Assembly: GCA_034414555.1 (NCBI GenBank)
Contig: DAOUMA010000008.1
Span: 78,560 to 142,559, forward strand
Direction: 5' to 3'
Source of the DNA: Dehalococcoidia bacterium
GTDB lineage: Bacteria; Chloroflexota; Dehalococcoidia; GIF9; AB-539-J10
DNA: 64,000 nt
Made by a program: the position numbers and the translations under genes. Under the pieces are notes generated by a model. It was not told where the DNA came from and searched no databases. It saw only the letters and a program-made list of their open reading frames with translations. Positions 5,700 to 18,053 of the stretch are shown here, in pieces (position 1 is the first letter of the stretch; every line of letters begins with the position of its first letter).

Positions 5700-6335
5700 T
5701 TATGACACGATTTGAACGCCCCAGACCTTAAGAATTTCCTCGTGGGTTACCACTTCGCACAGGCTTCTTAAGTTCGCCAGCGACCTCTCATGTGCGTCCT
5801 TGTTGGCTGAGGATACCCCATCGCTAACTATCACCACATAATAACCCCGGTTCAATGCCTCTCTGGCAGAGGATTCAACGCCCCACTCCGTAGATATACC
5901 TGTGAAAACCAGTGTTTCTATGCCTCCATACCTGGCGATATAGTCAAAATTCGTGCCTATAAATATGCTGGCCGTATTCTTGTTTAGGACGATGTCTTCC
6001 CGCAAAGGAGCTATCACCTCGGCGATTTCCAGCGCCTTTGGGTCATCACCAAAGGACGAGCGAAGTTGTTTTACATCCTTTATCCCTATTCGTTTCATCT
6101 GCTGGGCTAGCGCCGCCGGCGCCTGGAAGCGGGCAGGCAAAGGGGTTATTTTTGTATAGACCACCGGCACTTGAATCTTTCTCGCTGTCTGAAGCAGCGC
6201 TTCTACTGAGTTGAGAATCTCGTTTTTATTGAATACCCTGTTGACCAGCATATTTTGCATATCCCAAACTATCAGCAGCGAATGCTCTGGAGCTATAATA
6301 TCGGGCAGTTCGGTGTAGAATTTACTTGTCGCCAT
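5700..6335 (-). CDS. Isochorismatase-family (cysteine hydrolase-like) protein
   Basis: 211 aa. LLIVWDMQN...VVYTK...LVFTGISTEWGVESSAREA fits the isochorismatase fold pattern. The usual catalytic Cys is not obvious. Confidence 0.55.
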   Translation of the reverse strand: MATSKFYTELPDIIAPEHSLLIVWDMQNMLVNRVFNKNEILNSVEALLQTARKIQVPVVYTKITPLPARFQAPAALAQQMKRIGIKDVKQLRSSFGDDPKALEIAEVIAPLREDIVLNKNTASIFIGTNFDYIARYGGIETLVFTGISTEWGVESSAREALNRGYYVVIVSDGVSSANKDAHERSLANLRSLCEVVTHEEILKVWGVQIVS

Positions 6336-6842
6336 GAGATTCCTCCTCTTTACTTCATGTTATGCCATATTCCTTACCAATAAAAATCAAGATGCCGAAA
6401 AGAAGACACGCAATGCCTATGAAAATTGACGGGCGTATAAAAATAATTGGTCGCATATTCACCTTCTTCATTTATTAAGGCTGTTTAATTTTCAAAAGCC
6501 TTGTTTTTAGCTTCGTCATGGTTGTCCCGGAAATTTCTCACCCCCGAGCTTTGTAATGCGACCATTCAAGGTCGTGCAGCACGAGGCTAAAGCCTGGCAC
6601 TACATTTTTAAACATCCGCTCATTATATCAATTGAAGCGTGCTTTTGCTATAAATGGTGGCGATATATTAGCGAAGGTAACGGGTTGTGCTGTGGTTGGT
6701 CTGGAAGGAGCCATAGTTGAGGTGGAGGTTGACATATCATCTGGATTGCCTTCGTTTGTCAATGTTGGGACGCAATGTTAACAAGAGTATTCCTTTTGAG
6801 CTGGCTTTGACTGAGTAAACGGATATACCCGCAATCAACTCC

Positions 6843-6950
6843 TGTCGGGGTGGAACTTCCGGTTAATTTCTATTATACCAACGAGGAAGGAGTAAATTTC
6901 AGCAAGCAGCGATAAAATTCCCCAAGCCTGAACAAAATTGACGTTTTGTT
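6843..6950. repeat. Composite scar at the left border of the low-GC operon. It is a remnant of a paralog of the 2034..2780 gene (encodes VELPVNFYYTNEEG...) fused to a copy of the 354-402 repeat
   Basis: 6849-6892 aligns to 2090-2133 with about 6 mismatches. 6901-6950 aligns to 354-402 at about 85%. It reads in frame as a gene fragment ending in a stop. Confidence 0.6.
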
Positions 6951-7039
6951 ACATTACATTCTAGGCTTTTGTAAAATAGGTGGATACATAGAAAGGTTCA
7001 TGACATATTGGAATTGCATTTCATCAGCTAGGACTTTAC

Positions 7040-7702
7040 TCACGCAGGATTCCTAGCAATAAAATCACGCACACCTTGCACCATCAGAGCAACTTGTTCT
7101 TTTGAATATTCATTGTACTTGCCGTGTGCAGCATTGTTACGAAGCCCCAGCCACGCGGTGATACTTTTCTGGTCGAGTTTAGAATAAACGTTAGCGCCAG
7201 CGAGTTCTGCATTCAGACCATCGGCTTTCTTAGGCAGAGACCCCTTAGTCACTGGGATACTATGAGCCTGACATAATTTTCGCAACTGCTCTTCAAGAAC
7301 GCCACCGATTAGAACAGCTGCAGGGTCTTTGTAGCCTTCTGTAAGAAGATAGTCAGCCATCTCCAGAAAATCGCCAAAGATGTCCCCATGGATAATCTCG
7401 TAAACTGATCGTAGGTAACCTGCCTCGTAGTCGGTTCTTAGTGCTTTCAAAATACCGGGAAGGACTATTAAATTGTAAGCCTCATTCTCACCGTATTTCT
7501 TGAGAGCAGCGCGGGCATTCTCTGCATATCGGCTACCACGGGGAGCGAGCCGCTCTATAGCTGCGGCAAGTATCGTAACAAGCTCTGGCACTTCTGTGCC
7601 CAAGTCTGAGCAGTCATCATACTTGGAGCGTGACTTGGCCTTCGCCCATCTCTCAAGTGCTTTGTCGATCTGATTTAGAATAGCCTCTTGATTAATAGAC
7701 AT
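7040..7702 (-). CDS. Hypothetical protein with a C-terminal Rx4H motif (LRNNAAHG), possibly HEPN-like (DUF4145-like)
   Basis: 220 aa. The Rx4H motif lies near the C-terminus. It is the last gene of the nine-gene minus-strand operon, 11 nt after the radical SAM ORF. Confidence 0.45.
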   Translation of the reverse strand: MSINQEAILNQIDKALERWAKAKSRSKYDDCSDLGTEVPELVTILAAAIERLAPRGSRYAENARAALKKYGENEAYNLIVLPGILKALRTDYEAGYLRSVYEIIHGDIFGDFLEMADYLLTEGYKDPAAVLIGGVLEEQLRKLCQAHSIPVTKGSLPKKADGLNAELAGANVYSKLDQKSITAWLGLRNNAAHGKYNEYSKEQVALMVQGVRDFIARNPA

Positions 7703-7713
7703 TGTCTGACCCC

Positions 7714-8481
7714 TTAACGCGGCGCATTATATGAAAAAGCAAGATGATCCTCATACGGCTCCATTGCCTCGCGATGGAAGATAGCTTCCTCCGGCTGTTC
7801 TATTATGTGCTTAAACTCGCCAACATCTTTGCCAAAAGCCTTCTCAAAGAATGGCCTTCTCGGCCCCACCACACCGTGAGTAGCGTGAAGAATGCATTGT
7901 ATACCTCTTAGTTGTCTCTTAGTCCAATTTGGACTGATATATTTCCTATCTTTCGCATCAAGAGGTATGTACCGCATTGGGAAGGAGAAGATACTAAGGC
8001 CTAACTCCTCATTAAGTTCTATATTTATAAGAAGTCTTTTATAAAAGTCTTTCGGGCAATCATCAAAATTGAACAATATGTAATTGGATAGATGCCTGAT
8101 TCCGTACTTATGAGCTAAGCGCACTTTCTCTATATAGAGTTTTTCAAACTTAATGTTGTCAAAAGCTATTCGTAGTGGTTTGAGGGCCAACTGACTGAGA
8201 AGTTCCATCTTACCTTCGTCAAGTAGCCGTGCATCAACACCTTGGTTAAAATCAAGATACCGATAAGCATTCCCAAACCTAGCTCCTTTTTGGAATCCGT
8301 ACTTCTTTATCTCCTCAACTATGCGTGGAAACTCAGCAGAAGCCAAGACATTGTTGTCGAGCAATATGAGGTCTTTCTTGTCAGGATCCAACTGTTGCTC
8401 TAAAGGTATAAAGGGTATAAAGTGCGGCTCTAACCTGTGTACAGCACAGTAAGGGCAGTGGTTTATGCAACCTTTAGTCAT
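7714..8481 (-). CDS. Radical SAM core domain protein; CxxxCxxC (C-INH-C-PY-C) begins at residue 5
   Basis: MTKGCINHCPYCAV. 255 aa. The start ATG overlaps the stop of the upstream B12-binding-domain ORF (ATGA). Confidence 0.75.
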   Translation of the reverse strand: MTKGCINHCPYCAVHRLEPHFIPFIPLEQQLDPDKKDLILLDNNVLASAEFPRIVEEIKKYGFQKGARFGNAYRYLDFNQGVDARLLDEGKMELLSQLALKPLRIAFDNIKFEKLYIEKVRLAHKYGIRHLSNYILFNFDDCPKDFYKRLLINIELNEELGLSIFSFPMRYIPLDAKDRKYISPNWTKRQLRGIQCILHATHGVVGPRRPFFEKAFGKDVGEFKHIIEQPEEAIFHREAMEPYEDHLAFSYNAPR

Positions 8482-8972
8482 ATATCCAATGCTGTGTTGT
8501 TCGTGTAATACTCGTACACATCATTGGTTAGAGCATAGTCAGGTTTCAACCTGTCAACCTCTTCCCAGAGACCAAAGTGTGGAGCTATGCCTGTTTCCCT
8601 TTCAATGTCTGCTTGCAAGAGCGATGCAAGTATGCCTCCAACTTTTATGTTGTCATTCTTAAGCTTGTTACGCTGATAAAATTTAATAGTTTCTATAGTC
8701 CTTTTCCATTGGAAGGTGAACAGAGTGGCTATGTAGATGATGTCCCATCTCTGGTCTCTTATTGCGGCACTGGTTCCTTTGTAGAAAACGACCTCATCAC
8801 CATGCGATTTGTGATAGGTTGAGATTTTCATTAGACCGAGGGGAGGATACTTTACTTTATAGGCTGGCTCTACAAGTAGAACTCTTTTCGGCCTGTTAAT
8901 CAAAATATGTGGGCCTTCTTCAATATTAGGAGCCAGCTTGTACTGCTTAGTTACTGTTATTTCAGTGCTCAC
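8478..8972 (-). CDS. Cobalamin (B12)-binding-like domain, the N-terminal module of a class B radical SAM enzyme encoded as a separate ORF
   Basis: RVLLVEPAYKVKYPPLGLMKISTYHKSHGDEVVFY matches the LLinP..pPLGLlyla..l...Ghev signature of radical-SAM B12-binding domains. 164 aa. ATGA overlaps at both ends. Confidence 0.6.
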   Translation of the reverse strand: MSTEITVTKQYKLAPNIEEGPHILINRPKRVLLVEPAYKVKYPPLGLMKISTYHKSHGDEVVFYKGTSAAIRDQRWDIIYIATLFTFQWKRTIETIKFYQRNKLKNDNIKVGGILASLLQADIERETGIAPHFGLWEEVDRLKPDYALTNDVYEYYTNNTALDI

Positions 8973-10180
8973 GTATTCTCCAAAATCCTCTCCAATTTTA
9001 TTTGATAGTCAGTATTATTCCGGTCAATAGTGTAGTGCAGTGCAGTTGGGTCTGATTGGTAAATATCTTCTAGTAACCCAGCAGCCTTATCATATTCAAG
9101 GAAGAGGCCTTGGCCATCGCGCAAGCTCAGTATATTTGAATAGAGAAGCAATGGCCTTAACAGGCAATAGCCACCGACCCCAGCCAAATGTTTGTAACCT
9201 GGCCAAATAAAGGTCACGAACTTGTCATGCCCAACTTCTTGTGGCAACACCTTTCCATAAGCTTGAGCTACAAATTCAAAGAACCCCGAATCCAAAAGTG
9301 CTTTTATCACGTTTTCTGGGTATTTCTTCTCCATTTCTGCCGCATAGGCTTGTGTTAGCGAGATTAGTTTGAGTCCTACCCTGGTGAACCGCCATGTTCT
9401 AGACCCAGCTGACTCTACAGCCCCCATATCAACCAGCCATTCCAAGCGAGGTATTGTTGTCTGTTCACGTCTAGACCCAGACCCTTGCTCCTCGGCTTTC
9501 TCCTCTATGTTCTTGAGAATCTGTTGCCTGCCCTTTTCAAGAATCTGTAGCTGTTTCTGGTCGGTTAGAGTATACGCGGAGCCAAGGAAGCTATTCCTTA
9601 TATTCTCCATTATGCCAGGAATGAGTGAACCGGCATCAAGGTAATTGAAACTTCCATCTGAAAATCGATTTAGAAGGACATCATAAAAGGGTACTAAGAA
9701 ATCGCCATCCGCAGCTAGCAGGTTGTATAAGAAGAATACTTGCTCTCCACGTTCCAAGACAAGTGGATTTACGGCCGAAGGGTGGTCGAATGCCTCGAGT
9801 TGCTCCTTCGACATCAAACCCTGATATAGAACAAGACCCATGTCGGTTCGTTCATACGAGGCTGTCACCAATCCTAGACCGCGGGGTAAGTATTCCGCAT
9901 ACTCATTGAAGCCAAGTTTAGAGAGCCATCCCGTTTGTGATGGATGACCATAGATATATAGCTTTTGCAGGCTCGTCACATCAGTTCCTTCGCCCAATCC
10001 TTTAAGCCATGTGGCGAGAGCCTCATCCGAAACAGTAAATTTATGCTCTTCAAGCCTTCTGCGCAGTACATCTGACATCTGGTCTGGGGTTCTAGCGAGT
10101 TCGGAAAAAGCCAACACTGCCTTACAAAACCCAAGTCGTTGCATAGAAAGTCTGGAACGACTAATCCATCGAATAGCCAT
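8969..10180 (-). CDS. Hypothetical protein of the operon, 403 aa, no recognisable motif
   Basis: Long ORF packed tightly between the HerA-like gene (2-nt gap) and the B12-domain ORF (4-nt overlap). No motif identifiable by eye. Confidence 0.5.
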   Translation of the reverse strand: MAIRWISRSRLSMQRLGFCKAVLAFSELARTPDQMSDVLRRRLEEHKFTVSDEALATWLKGLGEGTDVTSLQKLYIYGHPSQTGWLSKLGFNEYAEYLPRGLGLVTASYERTDMGLVLYQGLMSKEQLEAFDHPSAVNPLVLERGEQVFFLYNLLAADGDFLVPFYDVLLNRFSDGSFNYLDAGSLIPGIMENIRNSFLGSAYTLTDQKQLQILEKGRQQILKNIEEKAEEQGSGSRREQTTIPRLEWLVDMGAVESAGSRTWRFTRVGLKLISLTQAYAAEMEKKYPENVIKALLDSGFFEFVAQAYGKVLPQEVGHDKFVTFIWPGYKHLAGVGGYCLLRPLLLYSNILSLRDGQGLFLEYDKAAGLLEDIYQSDPTALHYTIDRNNTDYQIKLERILENT

Positions 10181-10182
10181 AT

Positions 10183-11580
10183 CTATGCCTCAAAACCTCC
10201 ATGTGCACTGACTCTTGGGCGGACTTCCATGACAAAACATCTGGGAGTGTTGGTATCAGACACTACAGCTTGACCAACTCCTATGTCTCGTATGAGTTCA
10301 TTTATCGATATATTGACGTTGTTATCCTTGATTTCCGTTGGCAAAGGTGATTTCAAGTTATCTAGAACGTAGTCTATATCAGATTGAGAGACTAATTTGT
10401 GAACGATGAACGTTTCCACTTGAGATAGCACGTTCGGGTCGAGTGCTCTTGGTTGTTGGGTAGTCACTACAAAGGAAAGGCCAAAATTTCTGCCTTCCTT
10501 GACAAACCTTATCAAACTAGCGGTAGCAGAAGTGCGTTTACCGGCCGGGATTACGTTTTGTGCTTCGTCAATAACGACCCAAACCTTGGGTACATAGCGT
10601 TCTACCAGTTCTTTTTTCTCTTTTTTCTGCTGCTCATCTAATTTCGGATTAATAAGAAGATCCTTTGTCATTTCAGAAGCTTCGGCTCTTTCCTGCAATA
10701 GCCTCTTGATAACTACTGAAACAAGTACACCACGCAGATCTTCTGGCAAACCGTTAAGTAGCACTACCGAAGCACGGCCGGCGGTAATCAGGTCACGCAG
10801 TGGCGTTCCGGAACCTGAGAAGATAGGATGCCGGTCATAAGCCCGAAGTTGTTGTAGGACAGCCCTTCTTGTCTCCGCCCGATATACGGATGCCTCATTC
10901 TCCTGGTCCTTCTCTATACATTCAATGAAGTCCCAAATCGTTTGGTCTTTCTTAGCACGATGGTAGTTGCCTTCAGTATCGTACCATCCCAAATCAACCA
11001 CCTTCTGAAATACCTCAGTAAAGTATTGTCCCTTAATATCGCGGACTATATCTAAGTCGAGAAGTGAGCTCCAGTCATCCAATGAGAAGTCTGGTACATT
11101 AAGATACAGGTCCTTGAAAGCTGGCGATGATAGACGATACCGGTAACCGGCAGGAACCCATACGTCAACGTCTAAGGGTACAGCCGGCAATCCCCAAGAA
11201 CGGAGTATATCTGCCTGACTCTTCATTTCCGCGGACTGTTGCTCTGCCGATAGGACTGGAATATTCATCCACTGGAAAATGTTTAGAGTGTCGAATAGAA
11301 GCAAGCCCCTCCGTTTGCTTGTAGCACCAATCGCTGAATTTGACTCAGAGGTACAGAGCGCCTCAATGAGCGAGCCCAAAGTATATGATTTACCCTGTCC
11401 TCGTTTTCCAACAATTGCTATGACCTTCTCTTTCGATACGTCAAATTTGATATTGTAGCGACGTCCATATTCAGCTAGTTTCCCCAAGAAAAGCCATTCT
11501 TTCGGTTCACCGGCCTCTGAGCCTGACGTACACCAATCACCCTGAGCACTCATTTCGGGGTATAGACCATACCTTTTCAT
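10183..11580 (-). CDS. HerA/FtsK-like ATPase (DUF87-type)
   Basis: Walker A IVGKRGQGKSYTL. Walker B VWVVIDEAQNV. C-terminal EGRNFGLSFVVTTQQPRALDPNVLSQVETFIVHKL is typical of HerA/DUF87 ATPases. Confidence 0.8.
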   Translation of the reverse strand: MKRYGLYPEMSAQGDWCTSGSEAGEPKEWLFLGKLAEYGRRYNIKFDVSKEKVIAIVGKRGQGKSYTLGSLIEALCTSESNSAIGATSKRRGLLLFDTLNIFQWMNIPVLSAEQQSAEMKSQADILRSWGLPAVPLDVDVWVPAGYRYRLSSPAFKDLYLNVPDFSLDDWSSLLDLDIVRDIKGQYFTEVFQKVVDLGWYDTEGNYHRAKKDQTIWDFIECIEKDQENEASVYRAETRRAVLQQLRAYDRHPIFSGSGTPLRDLITAGRASVVLLNGLPEDLRGVLVSVVIKRLLQERAEASEMTKDLLINPKLDEQQKKEKKELVERYVPKVWVVIDEAQNVIPAGKRTSATASLIRFVKEGRNFGLSFVVTTQQPRALDPNVLSQVETFIVHKLVSQSDIDYVLDNLKSPLPTEIKDNNVNISINELIRDIGVGQAVVSDTNTPRCFVMEVRPRVSAHGGFEA

Positions 11581-11595
11581 GGATTTAATCTCCTG

Positions 11596-12831
11596 CTAAA
11601 TACGTGGCATAGCTGAATCTAGAAGAGTCTTATCCGCTATCACATATTGATTACTTGCTTTTCCTTGGTGATAAGCAGCAGCCGCAACTTGTGCTAGCGC
11701 ATTTATTATCATGCGGGCATTTCTCGTCTGTTCGTTTTGAAATAGTATTTCCACCGCTCTATCAAGAGCATCTTCCGTGAATGGTAGACTCTGCCAGGTA
11801 ACTTTGCCAGCCAAGCCGACCTCGTTAATAAACTCCTTAGCTCTTTCTTCATCCTTTATATTTTGCATCAAATTGCTCATGAAGGCTCGCATGTCGTTTT
11901 TCGTATTGATAAGCCGAATTAAGTTGATAAACGCTTCGTCCACATTCTGTCGGGTTACGCCTAATCGAGACAGAATGTCATCGGCTGGCTGGATAATGGC
12001 TTTGGGAATAAACTGTTGTCCGGTTCCGAAATAGGCAATTACGAATCCAACATCCTGGTTATAGTCTGAGGCAAGTTGCAGAAAGGCATGATGTATCTCT
12101 ATCAATCTCTTGTCGACATTGTTGAGATCTTGTGCTTCGTCCATGAGAAAGACAATGGCCTTGCCTTGAGTCTTCCGGACCAAGTTACCCAGATTTAATG
12201 TGACATTAACCATATCTTCGGCGTTTTCCAACGCCTTTGTGGCAGCTAGGTCTTGAGCTTGGGCGCCCTTTTCCAGTTTGGAACCCCTAAGCCACTGCCA
12301 GGCTGGTAGAGTCGACCGTGTTTCCCTCAAAAAATACCCGGAAAGAACGTTAGCAAGAGACCTTTTCAGATTTTCATCTCCAAACTTGAATAGCTTTTTC
12401 ATCTCGTTGGATAAATCAGCGGTTTTGTCCTCAGAAGAACGGTTAAATTCTTGAACAATTAGCCTGAGGAAGGCTTCGCCCATCGAATCTAACATCTTGC
12501 CATGAATATACTTCCAGCCGCCAAGATCGGGTATACGCTCATCATATGGCGCAAGCCCGAGGAAGAAACATTTTGCAGGGTAATTCCCTGGCTTTTTGTC
12601 AAACAAATACTTGATATGATACAGCGTGTGAGTCTTTCCATCGCCGAATCTTCCGATAACTCCACATTTTGGGACGCCTCTTATATCGAAGTCACTCCTA
12701 ATCCGAGCCAATAGCTCGTCACTTACCTGCTTGTTGCCAAAGAACCATTCAGCATCTGCCTCTGGGTTTACCCTGAAGCGAGGGCGATTCAGGCAACAGT
12801 AGTCCTTAAGCTCCATATCTTTGATATCCAT
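11596..12831 (-). CDS. P-loop NTPase, paralog C of a tandem trio
   Basis: Walker A GRFGDGKTH at about residue 60. Walker B IVFLMDEAQ at about residue 218. Same architecture as 13383..14573 and 14580..15776. Confidence 0.7.
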   Translation of the reverse strand: MDIKDMELKDYCCLNRPRFRVNPEADAEWFFGNKQVSDELLARIRSDFDIRGVPKCGVIGRFGDGKTHTLYHIKYLFDKKPGNYPAKCFFLGLAPYDERIPDLGGWKYIHGKMLDSMGEAFLRLIVQEFNRSSEDKTADLSNEMKKLFKFGDENLKRSLANVLSGYFLRETRSTLPAWQWLRGSKLEKGAQAQDLAATKALENAEDMVNVTLNLGNLVRKTQGKAIVFLMDEAQDLNNVDKRLIEIHHAFLQLASDYNQDVGFVIAYFGTGQQFIPKAIIQPADDILSRLGVTRQNVDEAFINLIRLINTKNDMRAFMSNLMQNIKDEERAKEFINEVGLAGKVTWQSLPFTEDALDRAVEILFQNEQTRNARMIINALAQVAAAAYHQGKASNQYVIADKTLLDSAMPRI

Positions 12832-12867
12832 TTTCGCCTCCTTTTGCTGAGTTCCAATAAACTAAAG

Positions 12868-13386
12868 CTAGCCAAACAGATTCACTTTAGTGACCTGTTT
12901 GAGTTCTGTTCCCGCTCTATTCGGGATGTCTTCTTTACCTAATACTTCGAGTTCTTCAACTATAGCACAACCTGCTCCCTTCCCCTCCACGAGTAGCCCA
13001 ACCTCAAGAGCTCTAGTCGCTCTCCCCGAGAGGTTGGCAGAGCTTAGTAGTGCAAACCCGAATGGCTCGCAACGACAAACGTATATCTTCGCATGCAAGT
13101 CATTGTTGTAGTATAGCGTCACAAATGGGCTTCCTCTGAAAAGCTTAGCTGCTTCCGTGTTCAGTTGTTCTCTCTCGGGACTGCGCATGATAATTGTCGT
13201 TGGCACCTTTTCCCTTCTTATGACATATAGAATAGCCTCCAATGAGAAGGGCTCTCCGTCAAGACCCAATATCCATGGAGATACTATTACTAGGCTCGTA
13301 ATTCCTGTAGCTTGCATGAATCGCTCAAAGAACAAAGTGTGTCCTCCCTCACGAACAATGGTGACAAATCTCTCTTCCCATCTCAT
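12868..13386 (-). CDS. Phospholipase D-family (single HKD) nuclease-like protein (Nuc/BfiI-like)
   Basis: YNNDLHAKIYVCRCEPFGFALLSSANLS has HxK followed by S-x-N. 172 aa is consistent with a one-HKD dimeric nuclease. Confidence 0.6.
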   Translation of the reverse strand: MRWEERFVTIVREGGHTLFFERFMQATGITSLVIVSPWILGLDGEPFSLEAILYVIRREKVPTTIIMRSPEREQLNTEAAKLFRGSPFVTLYYNNDLHAKIYVCRCEPFGFALLSSANLSGRATRALEVGLLVEGKGAGCAIVEELEVLGKEDIPNRAGTELKQVTKVNLFG

Positions 13387-14573
13387 ATCTCTAGCAGACC
13401 TGCTGCGTGCTCAAGTGTTAGCTCCTTGTTTTCTTGGCAAACGTCTAGGCTAACTACCAAGGCTCTGATAAAATCTCTAGGAGTGCTGGCTGAAGCTGAC
13501 ACGCATCTTCGCACGAATAGCCTTATTGAGGATTTACCAAAATCATTACGCCCCCAACCGTAAGCCTTAAAATGCAAGTCTCGAACCCCTTCAGCAAGCT
13601 CAGTTAATTCCTTGCTTCCTAACTGGTATAGCTCTGTAAAATTTCCCAGGGCTTTATCAAATCCATATGGCATACTCTTAAAGAAAGCTGGGGTAGTCGC
13701 ATATACAAAGTACGAGTATGGTGTACTACGAGCGGCGGTAGCCAGGCTGTATAGATTCTTATATGCCTCTTCTCTCCTTACTGCGCTGGGAAGTGAAGGT
13801 ATAGCGTCTGCCTCATCCAGCAATGTTACAAGCCCTTTTAAACCCATAAACCTGAGCATTTTTGTCAGATTGCCGAGCATTTTGAGTGCGTTCTCTGGGG
13901 AAACATTAGTACTCATACCGATACGCTTGGCATCAGTCATCGTGGTTTCACCTTGGAGCCAGCGAAGAGCTGTGTCTACCTTCCGTGGCCTAGCAAAATG
14001 AACACCTTCAAAGTACTGTGTCAGCGCGTTCTTGACATTTGCATCTAAGTCAGTGAGTATCCAAGGAGCAAGACTATGTCTCGTCACATACTCCTTGACT
14101 TCTAGTGCCCAGTTCTCCAGAACATCTTCCAGAGCCGGCCTATCTGCACAACCGGCCGTCCTGAGGCCCTTGATCACATGGCGATACACGCTCTGAAGAT
14201 TATCCATAGGGCATTCCCTAGAGGAAAGTGTTAGAAAACTGCTTGCAAATTCCTCTATATGTGCATACTCCTGAAGAACCCTTAGCGTAAAGGACTTACC
14301 CATACCAAATATTCCGTCTATGACCCGCAAGCAGGAACTGCCATTAGCTACAAGTGTTAAGTCCTGTTTCATGGAATCAAACAAGTCTTCCCGCCCAACT
14401 GCCAAGACAAGAGCACCCTGGGTAGGCGCTGTTCCTTGGCGACATGATTCCACCAAGGTCAAGGCCATCTCCTTGGATACGTCCCTGACAGATGGTAGCT
14501 TGGGGCGTCTTCGAGCCCTCTGAAGCAGTGCTCTAAGTTTCGGGTCATCTCCAATAGTACCCATTTTCGTCAC
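13383..14573 (-). CDS. P-loop NTPase, paralog B
   Basis: Walker A GIFGMGKSF. Walker B LVTLLDEAD. 396 aa. 4-nt ATGA overlap with the PLD gene. Confidence 0.7.
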   Translation of the reverse strand: MTKMGTIGDDPKLRALLQRARRRPKLPSVRDVSKEMALTLVESCRQGTAPTQGALVLAVGREDLFDSMKQDLTLVANGSSCLRVIDGIFGMGKSFTLRVLQEYAHIEEFASSFLTLSSRECPMDNLQSVYRHVIKGLRTAGCADRPALEDVLENWALEVKEYVTRHSLAPWILTDLDANVKNALTQYFEGVHFARPRKVDTALRWLQGETTMTDAKRIGMSTNVSPENALKMLGNLTKMLRFMGLKGLVTLLDEADAIPSLPSAVRREEAYKNLYSLATAARSTPYSYFVYATTPAFFKSMPYGFDKALGNFTELYQLGSKELTELAEGVRDLHFKAYGWGRNDFGKSSIRLFVRRCVSASASTPRDFIRALVVSLDVCQENKELTLEHAAGLLEI

Positions 14574-14579
14574 GTCTTG

Positions 14580-15776
14580 CTAGTCTTCATGCTCAAATTC
14601 AAGTTTCTCTATTAGATCGTCCAGCATAGCGTTTTCACGCTTCTCTTCTGTAACATCCAGAACGCCTATTAGACCCTTTATGAAAGACCTAATCATGCGC
14701 GGGTCACTAGTTTCAAGAAAGGCAGATACGTACTTGCTAATTGCTCTTGGGTTGAAATAGTCTCCGGCATTCCATTCATATGCCTTGGAGTGTGTGTCAA
14801 CAATGCGAGGTGCTAGCTCCTCCAAAGTGGATTGGTCGAAGGGTGGCAAAGCCATAATTATTGACCTAGCACTTGACTGTTGTAGTCCTCCTCCTATAAC
14901 ATCTTTGATTCTACTCCATAGTGCTGGATATGATCGGGCTCCATTATCAGGGTCTGAGAGGAACTTTGGTGTAGTAGCAAAGAAAACGTAAAAACCTCGA
15001 TGTTCGTCAGGGTTATCCAGCAGTTTACGTATATTCTGGTTTGCTTCTTCACGTTTACGGGATTGAGTCAGTGACGTAATAGCCTCAGCCTCGTCTAAGA
15101 GTACAACAAGGCCAGCATAACCACAAGCCCGCACAAATCGCAAGAAAGAGCCAAGTATCTCACTTACATTCATTATAGTAACGTTAGAGCGTATTCCTTT
15201 TGATTTAAGTTCAGACATTACCTGGTATCCTTGTAGCCAAGCTAATATTCCCTGCATCCGAATTCGATGATCCGGAGAGTCTGTATTAGCGTATTCTAAG
15301 CATGCACGTAAGGCTGCTCTAAAATCCAACGAAGGCGCAATTTGACGTAGATTCGCCTCGACTTCTTGCGAAGAATGGTAAGGAAATCGCCTTGCCCAAT
15401 CCTCAAACATGTGTTCAATACCCTGTCCATCGGGTAAGGTTACGCCACGCATTATCTTCGGGAATATCACTTCAAACCTATCAAACGGAGCTTCTCTTGA
15501 ATTGAGTTCTACATATGACAACAAGAAATTCGCAGACAGGGCTTTTTCCTTGACTTGCATGAAGAAATGTGTCTTACCGCCGCCATAGGGTGCAGACAAG
15601 AAGCGGATTTTGCAGCCACCTTGCCCTATATAAGCTAGATCTCGAGATATAGATGCCAACCATTGCTCACGGCCGACCGAGTACAGCTCCAAGTGTCGTG
15701 CTGGCACAGTCCCTTGCCGAAATGATTCTATAATCGCTTCTGCATCAAACCGACCTAGCTCCCCCGTGCTACTCAT
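14580..15776 (-). CDS. P-loop NTPase, paralog A; first gene of the operon
   Basis: Walker A YGGGKTHF. Walker B LVVLLDEAE. 398 aa. The three paralogs share a long (about 160 aa) Walker A-to-B spacing. Confidence 0.7.
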   Translation of the reverse strand: MSSTGELGRFDAEAIIESFRQGTVPARHLELYSVGREQWLASISRDLAYIGQGGCKIRFLSAPYGGGKTHFFMQVKEKALSANFLLSYVELNSREAPFDRFEVIFPKIMRGVTLPDGQGIEHMFEDWARRFPYHSSQEVEANLRQIAPSLDFRAALRACLEYANTDSPDHRIRMQGILAWLQGYQVMSELKSKGIRSNVTIMNVSEILGSFLRFVRACGYAGLVVLLDEAEAITSLTQSRKREEANQNIRKLLDNPDEHRGFYVFFATTPKFLSDPDNGARSYPALWSRIKDVIGGGLQQSSARSIIMALPPFDQSTLEELAPRIVDTHSKAYEWNAGDYFNPRAISKYVSAFLETSDPRMIRSFIKGLIGVLDVTEEKRENAMLDDLIEKLEFEHED

Positions 15777-15824
15777 TGTGCCGCCCCGTGACCCATAGTA
15801 TATAACCTCGGACTCAGCGACACA

Positions 15825-15947
15825 ACAAAATGGCGTTTTGTGCAGTAGGACGAGTTACCATATTCAGTTTCATAGCCATTCTCGCGGGTGCTATAATCTC
15901 GATGAAAACGGCGGATTGTTCGGCGCTGTGCCAACTTTGCCGGTGTC
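15825..15947. repeat. Composite repeat at the right border of the operon: ggcgttttgtgcag, motif A (cgcgggTGcTATAATctcgatgaaaa), then motif B (gcgctgtgccaactttgccg)
   Basis: Motif A recurs at 23009-23035 and is related to 455-470. Motif B with its ttgtgcag prefix recurs at 17093-17127. Confidence 0.55.
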
Positions 15948-16071
15948 TACATTTTTCCAGAAATTCATCTACGGCTTGTGCTAATCATAATTCCTCCTCC
16001 TCATCATAACTGCTTAGCAACAGCAAACTTGATTGAAAGGCAGATAAGCTGTGTAACATCCGGAGACGGAG

Positions 16072-16977
16072 TCATCTTGAGGCTACAATATATCCAGCGA
16101 TGAGAATTAGAAAACCACCGACAAGCATGAGTGGTGTGGGTTGCTGGGCTAGAAAGAGAAAGCCGAAAACCACAGCGCTTGCGGGCTCCAAATAAGTGAA
16201 AACTACCGCCTTCTGAGCCTTTATCATTCCAAGGCCTTTAAGGTAGAGTGTAACGGCAAATCCCGTGTTGAAGACACCCAAAACCAGCAGAAGTAACCAT
16301 GAAGATAAATCTGGAGAAAAATCAGTGCCTATTACGAAGGGAAGGAGGAAAATTGTAGCTGCAGCGTAAGAATAAAATGCTACGACTTGACTTGAGAAGC
16401 TGGATAAAGCCCTCTTAGACGCGATGACAAATCCGGCATAGGCGAGGCCGGCAAGAAGCCCAAGAATTACTCCCAAAAGATTCAGGTGACTAATCTGAAG
16501 ATTCTGCTGATATGAAATAACTACTATTCCTGCCACGGATATGGCTAATGCAAGCAGGGTAGATTTCTCAAGTTTCTCCTTAAGAAATAGGGGGGCAAGT
16601 AAAGCTACAAAGATGGGTGCCGTGTAATTTAGCAAGACCGCGTTGGCGATTGCAATGAGTTTCATCGAATGGAAAAGCAACGTCCAACCCAGGGCGAGCA
16701 GCAAGCCTAAACTCAGCATAACCCTCCAGGACCTAGCAGCACGCATCGTTTCAGGTTTTCGAGTCAAAAGTACTACAGGCAGGAGGGTGAGGCTGGCAAA
16801 TAAGACCCTGAAGAAAGCGATAACGGACGCGTCGTAAGGGACCCAGTTTACAATTACACCATTAGAGCCCCAGATGATAGCTGCCGCAGCCACGTAGGAG
16901 TATACCAAGAACTTTGAATTGAATTGTCTCAGCACAACTACCCCGGTTTTATGAAGCTGGAAAGAGACATTCTCCAT
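16072..16977 (-). CDS. EamA/DMT-superfamily transporter
   Basis: 301 aa, about 10 TM helices, with the two-repeat architecture typical of EamA. Confidence 0.7.
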   Translation of the reverse strand: MENVSFQLHKTGVVVLRQFNSKFLVYSYVAAAAIIWGSNGVIVNWVPYDASVIAFFRVLFASLTLLPVVLLTRKPETMRAARSWRVMLSLGLLLALGWTLLFHSMKLIAIANAVLLNYTAPIFVALLAPLFLKEKLEKSTLLALAISVAGIVVISYQQNLQISHLNLLGVILGLLAGLAYAGFVIASKRALSSFSSQVVAFYSYAAATIFLLPFVIGTDFSPDLSSWLLLLVLGVFNTGFAVTLYLKGLGMIKAQKAVVFTYLEPASAVVFGFLFLAQQPTPLMLVGGFLILIAGYIVASR

Positions 16978-17092
16978 TATACACTATAAGTTATCGCCGT
17001 CTCTTTTGTGTGCCAGGTTGTAAAGTTGTAGCCTTAGTCAAGGGATTGGGCCCTTCGGCTGTTGGCATCAGCTCACACCCTAATTGCACCTT

Positions 17093-17127
17093 TTAGCGGT
17101 TTGTGCAGCGCTGTGCCAACTTTGCCG
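17093..17127. repeat. Copy of agcggtttgtgcag plus motif B (gcgctgtgccaactttgccg)
   Basis: Aligns to 15831-15844 joined to 15923-15942. The intervening approximately 80 bp that carries motif A at 15.9 kb is absent here. Confidence 0.55.
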
Positions 17128-17174
17128 CCTAATATGCTAGAATAGGCAGGATATTGTAGTAGTGAAGGAGCACT

Positions 17175-17507: not shown

Positions 17508-17595
17508 TTATAATGATCAGGAGTAGCTTGCGGTCTATTGAGCAGTAGCGAAGCTGGTGGGAAGGGGCGTACAATATAATTTGGAGGATAAAGAA

Positions 17596-17796
17596 ATGGC
17601 AAAGGCTAAATACCTTGTGGATGAGAAGGGTAGGAAGAGAGCAGTTCTCCTGGATATCAAGGAATATCAGCGATTCATGCGGCGGCTAGAAGAAATGGAA
17701 GATGCCCTCAGTTTAGATGAAGCAGTTCGCACTGCTCAAAGCTTCAGGGACTATCGTGAAGTCAGGGCTGAATTAAAGCGAGAAGGACGTCTGTGA
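17596..17796 (+). CDS. Type II antitoxin (Phd/YefM- or ParD-like)
   Basis: MAKAKYLVDEKGRKRAVLLDIKEYQRFMRRLEEMEDALSLDEAVR. SD GGAGGA 6 nt upstream of the ATG at 17596 (the ORF track started earlier at 17557). The stop overlaps the toxin start. Confidence 0.7.
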   Translation: MAKAKYLVDEKGRKRAVLLDIKEYQRFMRRLEEMEDALSLDEAVRTAQSFRDYREVRAELKREGRL

Positions 17797-18053
17797 GGTA
17801 TGTTGTTCTCCTGGAAAGTCGAGCCGAGAAGGAGCTTAAATCTCTTCCTCAAGGGGTTTTGAAGCGGGTGGATATTAAGTTGCAAGCTTTGTCGCTCAAT
17901 CCTCGCCCAAGAGGTGTAACAAAACTAAAAGGAAAAGAAAGTGAAGGATGGCGACTTAGAATAGGCGATTATCGGCTCCTTTATCAAATCGATGATAAAG
18001 AGAATGTCGTGCGTATCTATAAAATTAAACACAGACGGGAAGTTTATCGCTGA
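17793..18053 (+). CDS. RelE/ParE-family type II toxin
   Basis: 86 aa. ...GDYRLLYQIDDKENVVRIYKIKHRREVY is typical of RelE/ParE. It overlaps the antitoxin by 4 nt. Confidence 0.8.
   Translation: MRYVVLLESRAEKELKSLPQGVLKRVDIKLQALSLNPRPRGVTKLKGKESEGWRLRIGDYRLLYQIDDKENVVRIYKIKHRREVYR

Follow-up and report, generated by a model that had tools for sequence, protein, structure and literature searches.

The stretch of DNA analysed here, which we call the window, spans 64,000 nucleotides of contig DAOUMA010000008.1 from a Dehalococcoidia bacterium (assembly GCA_034414555.1), and its minus strand carries a block of co-directional genes running from 15776 to 7040. The final gene of this block encodes a protein of 220 residues, for which we present evidence of a HEPN fold and whose relation to the remainder of the block is the subject of this analysis. 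A first-pass annotation of the window had pointed to an open reading frame (ORF) of this length at the end of the block, bearing the sequence RNNAAH near its C-terminus, and both are confirmed by the ORF and by the motif codons, which we checked by hand (CGT for arginine and CAC for histidine). The gene and its elements are as follows:

7040..7702, minus strand: HEPN gene, 220 residues, ATG start (from the ORF list and translation)
7418..7702, minus strand: residues 1-95, variable N-terminal domain of four helices with a putative sensory or regulatory function (from the structure model and column conservation)
7043..7417, minus strand: C-terminal HEPN domain, residues 96-220
7124..7141, minus strand: codons of R188-N189-N190-A191-A192-H193, i.e. 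RNNAAH (from translation and alignments)
7703..7713, minus strand: junction with the preceding radical-SAM gene, 11 nucleotides with a GGGG Shine-Dalgarno-like run, into which a promoter would not fit

By itself the motif is weak evidence that does not rise beyond chance: at least one Rx4H is present in 15% of 20,000 shuffles of the protein and at least one Rx4-6H in 40% of them, and the protein itself holds two more Rx4-6H matches, R98..H105 and R141..H147. We examined conservation in 150 representatives of clusters at 50% identity, which are 38-59% identical to the window protein. Within these additional matches R141 is 89% conserved, and R98, H105 and H147 are each conserved at less than 85%. 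In the same set R188 is conserved at 99%, N189 at 97% and H193 at 99%, and all three residues are invariant in an alignment of 53 homologues that are 55-90% identical (alignment A1). The arginine and histidine on which the initial assignment had depended are thus conserved in homologues. Three other positions, K125, A129 and E137, are 100% conserved across the 150 representatives. Furthermore, the arginine is followed by asparagine, one of the polar residues (N, D or H) that typify this position of the HEPN Rx4-6H motif, so that the full signature reads R188-N189-x3-H193.

An AlphaFold2 model built on the alignment (mean predicted local distance difference test score 91.2) shows two helical domains, comprising residues 1-95 and 96-220. 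The N-terminal domain consists of helices at residues 5-25, 37-52, 58-70 and 77-94, and the motif lies at the end of a helix spanning residues 175-192. The protein has the all-α up-down helical bundle with HEPN topology that is characteristic of the superfamily, and the top matches of a Foldseek search of the PDB are all HEPN proteins, with probabilities of 0.97-1.0. The closest structural matches are the minimal HEPN toxins of MNT-HEPN pairs, namely AF0298 (UPF0332), the Shewanella HepT toxin SO_3166 and an Aphanizomenon HEPN toxin; further matches include TTHA0636, TT1696, Csm6 and the sacsin HEPN domain, among others. The structural likeness to the minimal toxins is accompanied by an identity of 11-14%, and none of them was recovered by a sequence-profile search of the PDB. 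The HEPN-like fold proposed in the first-pass annotation is therefore found in the structure prediction. Because they are conserved and lie in a domain resembling HEPN structures that have been solved, we accept R188 and H193 as a genuine motif, and we are highly confident of both the HEPN fold of the protein and the functional type of its motif. A comparable search of viral folds (BFVD) returned nothing meaningful, its best match having an E-value of 0.34 and non-HEPN tail and membrane proteins leading the list. Neither the model nor Pfam scans revealed a recognisable nucleotide-binding sensor such as CARF or SAVED.

The two domains differ strongly in their conservation. Mean column conservation across the 150 representatives is 0.35 in the N-terminal domain versus 0.63 in the C-terminal domain; across the family, the median identity to the window protein is 49% versus 67%. 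Relatives on plasmids (of Acinetobacter, Hymenobacter and Serratia) and on IMG/VR contigs share the region of residues ~83-217 with the window protein at 42-58% identity, and have an N-terminal region of equal length that cannot be aligned to it.

The family defined by these features is large. A search of 5.8 billion proteins recovered 2,709 homologues, and an exhaustive search with the family profile through 1.84 billion cluster representatives yielded 4,643 clusters at 50% identity with E-values up to 1e-3, and 1,048 with E-values up to 1e-30. The best 150 clusters all comprise proteins of ~220 residues that match over their full length, and relatives with 55-60% identity were recorded from metagenome-assembled genomes (MAGs) of both bacteria (Omnitrophota) and archaea (Lokiarchaeota). 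A tblastn search of 50,697 phage genomes gave no match. Among Pfam families the nearest model is HEPN_RiboL-PSP (PF18735), which matches residues 175-215 of the window protein with 15.9 bits (E-value 0.013). The same model matches 51 of the 53 relatives at E-values up to 1, the best being 8.7e-7, and the source database tags some relatives as PF18735, so that a relationship to this family is plausible. A few of the 53 relatives match HEPN_MAE_28990, DUF4145 or HEPN. One relative is labelled a DUF4145 domain-containing protein by NCBI, and the plasmid relatives are labelled HEPN or DUF4145 proteins. When the family profile was compared by hhalign with a HEPN_MAE_28990/RiboL-PSP protein from a neighbouring gene (L098) and with a DUF4145 protein (L011), alignment was confined to the motif helix with probabilities below 2%, and the tie to the named HEPN families thus remains weak at the sequence level. 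The affiliation with Abi, Csm6 or DUF4145 proteins that had been suggested earlier does not hold up by sequence: PADLOC, which covers Abi-type and Csm6-type models, returned nothing, and DUF4145 (PF13643) matches 7 of the 53 relatives weakly (best E-value 0.01) and the window protein not at all at E-values up to 0.1. Four relatives bear the JGI label "DUF2164 family", which we considered as an identity for the N-terminal domain and rejected, as this family is absent from the 25 most-matched Pfam families shown for the 53 members.

The stop codon of the gene before it (7714..8481) and the start of the HEPN ORF are separated by 11 nucleotides, which read TAAGGGGTCAGACAATG on the coding strand. 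In relatives the same junction takes the form of an 11-nucleotide overlap (L007) or a 12-nucleotide gap (L009). In the 700 nucleotides beyond the HEPN gene (6336-7039) there is no ORF of at least 60 residues, and a consensus scan of 6200-8000 revealed nothing resembling a terminator on the minus strand; for promoters and terminators the results were no better than those from shuffled sequences. No Rfam family was found in or near the gene. There is no step in GC content between the HEPN gene and the operon, and composition therefore shows no trace of a recent acquisition.

The seven other genes of the block, counting the split radical-SAM gene as one, are listed below in order of increasing coordinate, i.e. 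from the junction with the HEPN gene towards the start of the operon; their functional assignments derive from matches to Pfam, PADLOC and NCBIfam:

7714..8972, minus strand: gene for a B12-binding-like and radical-SAM protein (rSAM), split into 164 + 255 residues by a deletion of 1 nucleotide
8969-10180, minus strand: X403, 403 residues
10183-11580, minus strand: HerA ATPase
11596-12831, minus strand: 411-residue ATPase-like protein (N411)
12868-13386, minus strand: PLD/HKD protein, 172 residues
13383-14573, minus strand: BrxD-like 2, ORC/Cdc6-type ATPase
14580-15776, minus strand: BrxD-like 1, ORC/Cdc6-type ATPase

X403 is a rare protein, with 89 clusters in all, and we used it as a bait to fetch 70 related loci, in which every ORF was screened with profiles of all nine window proteins. 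The gene order BrxD1-BrxD2-PLD-N411-HerA-X403-rSAM is held in dozens of these loci, down to an X403 identity of 32%. In several clades (L046, L048, L050-L053, L058, L059, L061 and L064) rSAM does not follow X403; it is found upstream of BrxD1 and is often encoded on the opposite strand. The operon's closest named relatives belong to MAGs of Dehalococcoidia, Chloroflexota and Tectomicrobia, and the named MAGs with the operon also include Planctomycetia, Gemmatimonadota and a Hodarchaeota archaeon. Four of the operon proteins have no PADLOC match, and the combination of two BrxD proteins, PLD, ATPase, HerA, X403 and rSAM was not found in PADLOC or in the literature searched.

The rSAM gene is a single ORF of 419-426 residues in L007 and L009. 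In the window it is broken into two genes (8478..8972 and 7714..8481), joined by an ATGA stop/start overlap, through a deletion (CC to C, around 8494 within window 8478-8500 on the minus strand; alignment A3) that lies five codons before the CxxxCxxC motif. An identical split appears in L013, an independent assembly from Logan, and the gene has either become a pseudogene or encodes an enzyme in two parts. Its Pfam matches (B12-binding and Radical_SAM) are weak, and the CxxxCxxC motif is present; the intact rSAM of L009 (7634-8893) strongly matches the phage protein family phrog_9298 of PHROGs, "radical SAM domain protein", with an E-value of 6e-54, and NCBIfam models of B12-dependent radical-SAM proteins weakly.

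Profile searches of the fetched loci show that most instances of the operon are without the HEPN gene. The family was found in 7 of the 70 loci (L007-L010, L013, L019 and L049), in all of which X403 is at least 79% identical to that of the window; L013 is the same sequence as the window, and L007/L008 and L009/L010 are listed as pairs. In ~14 loci with an X403 identity of 71% or less, no member of the HEPN family follows rSAM in the 0.8-8.7 kb available beyond it. At the nucleotide level L007, L009 and L049 are homologous to the window from the start codon of BrxD1 to the stop codon of the HEPN gene, with differing flanks on either side. In L014, L021 and L024, which lack the HEPN gene, homology to the window stops at the 3' end of rSAM. 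The ratio of nonsynonymous to synonymous substitution rates (dN/dS) of the HEPN gene is 0.09-0.13 in comparisons with L007, L009 and L049, the more diverged members of the clade, and that of the other operon genes in the same comparisons is 0.07-0.21. Thus, within the clade that bears it, the HEPN gene is under purifying selection and the eight-gene block moves as one unit. The shared strand, the lack of space for a promoter, the common boundaries and the purifying selection together indicate that the gene is co-transcribed with the block. The locus L019 is a mosaic, in that its HEPN protein is 99% identical to that of the window (synonymous divergence, dS, 0.03) and its adjacent X403 is 79% identical (dS 0.51), which suggests recombination inside the operon between lineages.

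The operon-linked clade is also set apart by three residues close to the motif. It has Q139, G186 and N190 in place of the family consensus H, D and K (H139Q, D186G and K190N); in the rest of the family, H139 and D186 each reach a conservation of at least 90%.

The slot after rSAM is occupied differently in other clades. In L032 it holds an NYN-domain protein (12596-13372), i.e. another RNase-type fold, in L036 an NT5C-like protein of 461 residues (9504-10889), and in L037 a type II methylase and restriction enzyme pair (13312-17164). Unknown proteins are found there in L040 and L015, a SocA/Panacea protein lies past a gap in L014, and other loci have plainly unrelated genes in this place. This hints at a variable accessory slot or at the boundary of a defence island.

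Relatives sharing 57-69% identity with the window protein occur as lone genes in nine contexts that are unrelated to one another and have no neighbour family in common, among the approximately ten solo contexts that we read out of thousands. They were found between ribH and dapA (L003), between ffh and rpsP (L004), after addAB (L101), adjoining genes of the Wood-Ljungdahl pathway (L099) and beside a thioredoxin-like gene (L094). Others (L001, L011, L096 and L098) belong to islands that also carry further HEPN genes, Mrr, GmrSD, PIN/VapB or a serine recombinase. The solo relatives have neither a nucleotidyltransferase nor a conserved small ORF beside them in the contexts read. Given that the gene is limited to the clade closest to the window and that its relatives occur alone elsewhere, it is a lineage-specific addition drawn from a family of stand-alone genes, and not a general arm of the operon. 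The first-pass annotation had cast it as the RNA-side arm of this operon, and the part of that proposal which stands is the linkage, with shared boundaries and selection, in the closest clade; its presence in a tenth of the loci and the solo life of its relatives speak against the wider claim.

The existence of a full-length solo protein on the one hand, and of an operon without HEPN on the other, leads us to read the protein as a self-contained module that has been captured. We hold with moderate confidence that it combines a sensor with a HEPN RNase and serves the operon as an accessory, second-line effector, the RNase activity being predicted from the fold and motif. In such a mechanism the variable four-helix N-terminal domain would probably sense a trigger or restrain the enzyme. 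By analogy with characterised HEPN enzymes, dimerisation would bring two R-N-x3-H motifs into one composite active site. Once the N-terminal domain meets its trigger, the inactive state would be released, and metal-free cutting of single-stranded RNA (tRNA, rRNA or mRNA) would lead to arrest of translation. A narrow lineage would have captured the solo gene as the eighth and last gene of the BrxD-BrxD-PLD-ATPase-HerA-X403-radical-SAM block, placing an RNA-targeting effector, most likely of the second line, beside a DNA-directed core with its HerA translocase and PLD nuclease. By analogy we infer dimerisation, sensing by the N-terminal domain, a role in defence and any functional coupling to the operon, as well as the RNase activity itself; the toxicity and abortive infection that would follow are predicted from the same fold and motif.

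Several characterised proteins offer precedents for such a mode of action. Functionally the most alike is RAZR (PD-T7-4), a small single-gene system in which a recognition domain at the N-terminus precedes a divergent HEPN RNase of the DUF4145 type at the C-terminus, and which acts alone by sensing a phage protein and cutting tRNA and rRNA (PMC13017515). The architecture and logic proposed for the window protein are the same. However, the N-terminal domain of RAZR is a Cys4 zinc ribbon, whereas that of the window protein is all-helical and the whole protein has two cysteines (C31 and C144); the catalytic pair of RAZR, R146/H154, is also more widely spaced than R188/H193. A RAZR-like working would therefore be an analogy, and membership in RAZR is not supported, there being neither a zinc ribbon nor a PADLOC match at E-values up to 0.1. 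DARNA is likewise a small stand-alone immunity protein combining a sensor with HEPN, and both precedents cut tRNA or rRNA (bioRxiv 10.64898/2026.02.22.705581). It differs in the reversed order of its domains, with HEPN at the N-terminus, and in its length of 456 residues. ApeA and HepS were compared alongside DARNA as further single-gene HEPN immunity proteins, and the recent work on HepS was drawn on for the mechanism (PMC13043305). No PADLOC-DB profile of ApeA, DARNA/PD-T7-3, PD-T4-2 or the other catalogued HEPN defence proteins matches the window protein. The HEPN_RiboL-PSP and DUF4145 families delineated in the survey of HEPN domains (PMC3710099) supply the nearest sequence models, and the window protein lacks the fusion to L-PSP.

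With regard to the genomic setting, the Aravind group has proposed that HEPN domains serve as co-effectors or back-up effectors beside Dnd, BREX and HerA/FtsK "capture" systems, with the auxiliary HEPN acting upon failure of primary restriction (PMC10853773, PMC12839542). The resemblance lies in a HEPN endoRNase that occurs sporadically beside HerA/FtsK, ORC/Cdc6-type (BrxD-like) ATPases and a nuclease. The published cores differ, being DndFGH, BREX and BRC with PglZ, and the core of the window is not found among them.

An alternative, which we consider unlikely, is that the HEPN protein does no sensing of its own and depends on the operon, being switched on, for example, by a small molecule made by the rSAM enzyme or by contact with the BrxD/HerA complex. 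It would then be a fully integrated RNA arm, in line with the first-pass annotation. The tight coupling to the rSAM gene (the 11-nucleotide gap in the window and the overlap of equal length in L007), the travel of the eight genes as a unit and the presence of another RNase-type domain at the same position in L032 would accord with such dependence, and the substitutions H139Q, D186G and K190N near the active site could reflect a new mode of control. However, the two-domain protein, its N-terminal domain included, exists at 67-69% identity as a solo gene with no operon genes nearby, and most instances of the operon lack the HEPN gene, so that the core works without it. The model shows two helical domains only, in which no CARF- or SAVED-like sensor was recognised, and in the window strain the rSAM gene is frameshifted while the HEPN gene is intact.

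Quite unlikely, in our estimate, is a non-immune role, in which the protein would take part in housekeeping or regulatory RNA processing, or would be a non-catalytic HEPN-fold binder of RNA or nucleotides, encoded by a mobile gene that happened to land by the operon. Several solo copies do lie among housekeeping genes (ribH/dapA, ffh/rpsP and the acetyl-CoA pathway) with no antitoxin or defence neighbour, and an identity of 55-60% across phyla, with records from Omnitrophota and Lokiarchaeota, is unusual for fast-evolving immune toxins. Against this stand the full catalytic-type motif, conserved at 97-99% with the polar residue after the arginine, and an N-terminal domain that is far more variable than the catalytic domain. 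Furthermore, the distribution is patchy and single-copy, with ever-different flanks, and extends to small plasmids and to islands with HEPN, Mrr, GmrSD, PIN and restriction-modification genes, a pattern that is that of accessory conflict genes.

That the protein is the toxin of a toxin-antitoxin pair with its partner nearby, of the MNT-HEPN (HepT/MntA) kind or with an RNA antitoxin as in AbiF, is highly improbable despite the structural match to minimal toxins of MNT-HEPN pairs, since there is no adjacent nucleotidyltransferase in the window (radical-SAM gene upstream, 700 non-coding nucleotides downstream) or in the contexts read, Rfam is negative at the gene, and the protein has an additional N-terminal helical domain of conserved length, 95 residues, that is absent from minimal HepT toxins. 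Homology among the operon-linked loci does not run past the HEPN stop codon, and upstream the gene is bordered by coding sequence, leaving no conserved non-coding RNA in its flanks; an AbiF-type RNA antitoxin was rejected as a candidate for want of non-coding sequence conserved alongside the gene.

Returning to the captured, self-contained sensor-effector, a number of observations weigh against it. The PF18735 match is limited to the motif helix and the last helix, and its 15.9 bits fall below the gathering threshold of 28.4 bits, so that the protein is not a formal member of that family. PADLOC yielded no family for it at E-values up to 0.1, NCBIfam and PHROGs likewise have none, and the sole match in the profile search of PDB sequences was ATG16L1 with an E-value of 0.14, which is due to chance. 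Since other clades have unrelated genes in the position behind rSAM, the adjacency of the HEPN gene to the operon may reflect only the boundary of an island. The substitutions H139Q, D186G and K190N could mean that activity is altered or reduced in precisely the operon-linked clade, and the frameshift in rSAM may be a sign that the system is decaying in the window strain. Finally, the solo copies between housekeeping genes that have no defence neighbours fit a non-immune role equally well.

A bolder proposal, possible but in our view doubtful, is that the ~220-residue family with its ~4,600 clusters represents a widespread, so far unrecognised kind of single-gene immune sensor, and that H139Q, D186G and K190N rewired the operon-linked clade to the HerA/BrxD/radical-SAM machine. 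The fast-diversifying N-terminal domain would then recognise molecules of the invader and thereby release the conserved HEPN RNase. Were this so, the locus would document how a solo abortive-infection gene was domesticated to serve as back-up to a system of several genes that targets DNA.

Few effectors of prokaryotic conflict systems are as common as HEPN RNases, and one more is therefore not surprising. The present analysis delimits a family of small HEPN proteins with two domains, which is large, well conserved and uncharacterised and lies below current detection by Pfam and PADLOC. The combination of a variable N-terminal domain with a conserved catalytic domain suggests a sensor-effector arrangement like that of RAZR and DARNA, a hypothesis that can be tested. 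The locus is also a clean case of a multi-gene system gaining an accessory effector, in that the core is found with and without the gene and the block has sharp boundaries. The host operon is a more unusual object than the HEPN gene itself and merits a study of its own.

Three observations concern the surroundings of the block. Beyond the HEPN gene, at window 6665-6769 on the plus strand and inside an ORF at 6632..6781, there is a remnant of a ComM/YifB-type Mg-chelatase (ChlI), comprising its first 35 residues. It is 51% identical to the N-terminus of a homologue in L001 (pairwise E-value 9e-10); the 49-residue fragment has no match in Pfam, and the rest of the gene was not found within the 64-kb window. 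The comM gene is a classic site of island insertion, and the block may sit in a disrupted comM. On the other side, a direct repeat of 32 nucleotides (15911-15942 and 17096-17127, 91% identical and 1,185 nucleotides apart) brackets a gene for an EamA transporter (16072..16977) immediately upstream of the operon. Lastly, ~1.8 kb upstream of the operon start, at window 17557-18053 on the plus strand, lie the genes for a RelB-like antitoxin (79 residues) and a ParE toxin (86 residues), a pair whose presence is consistent with an accessory or mobile region.

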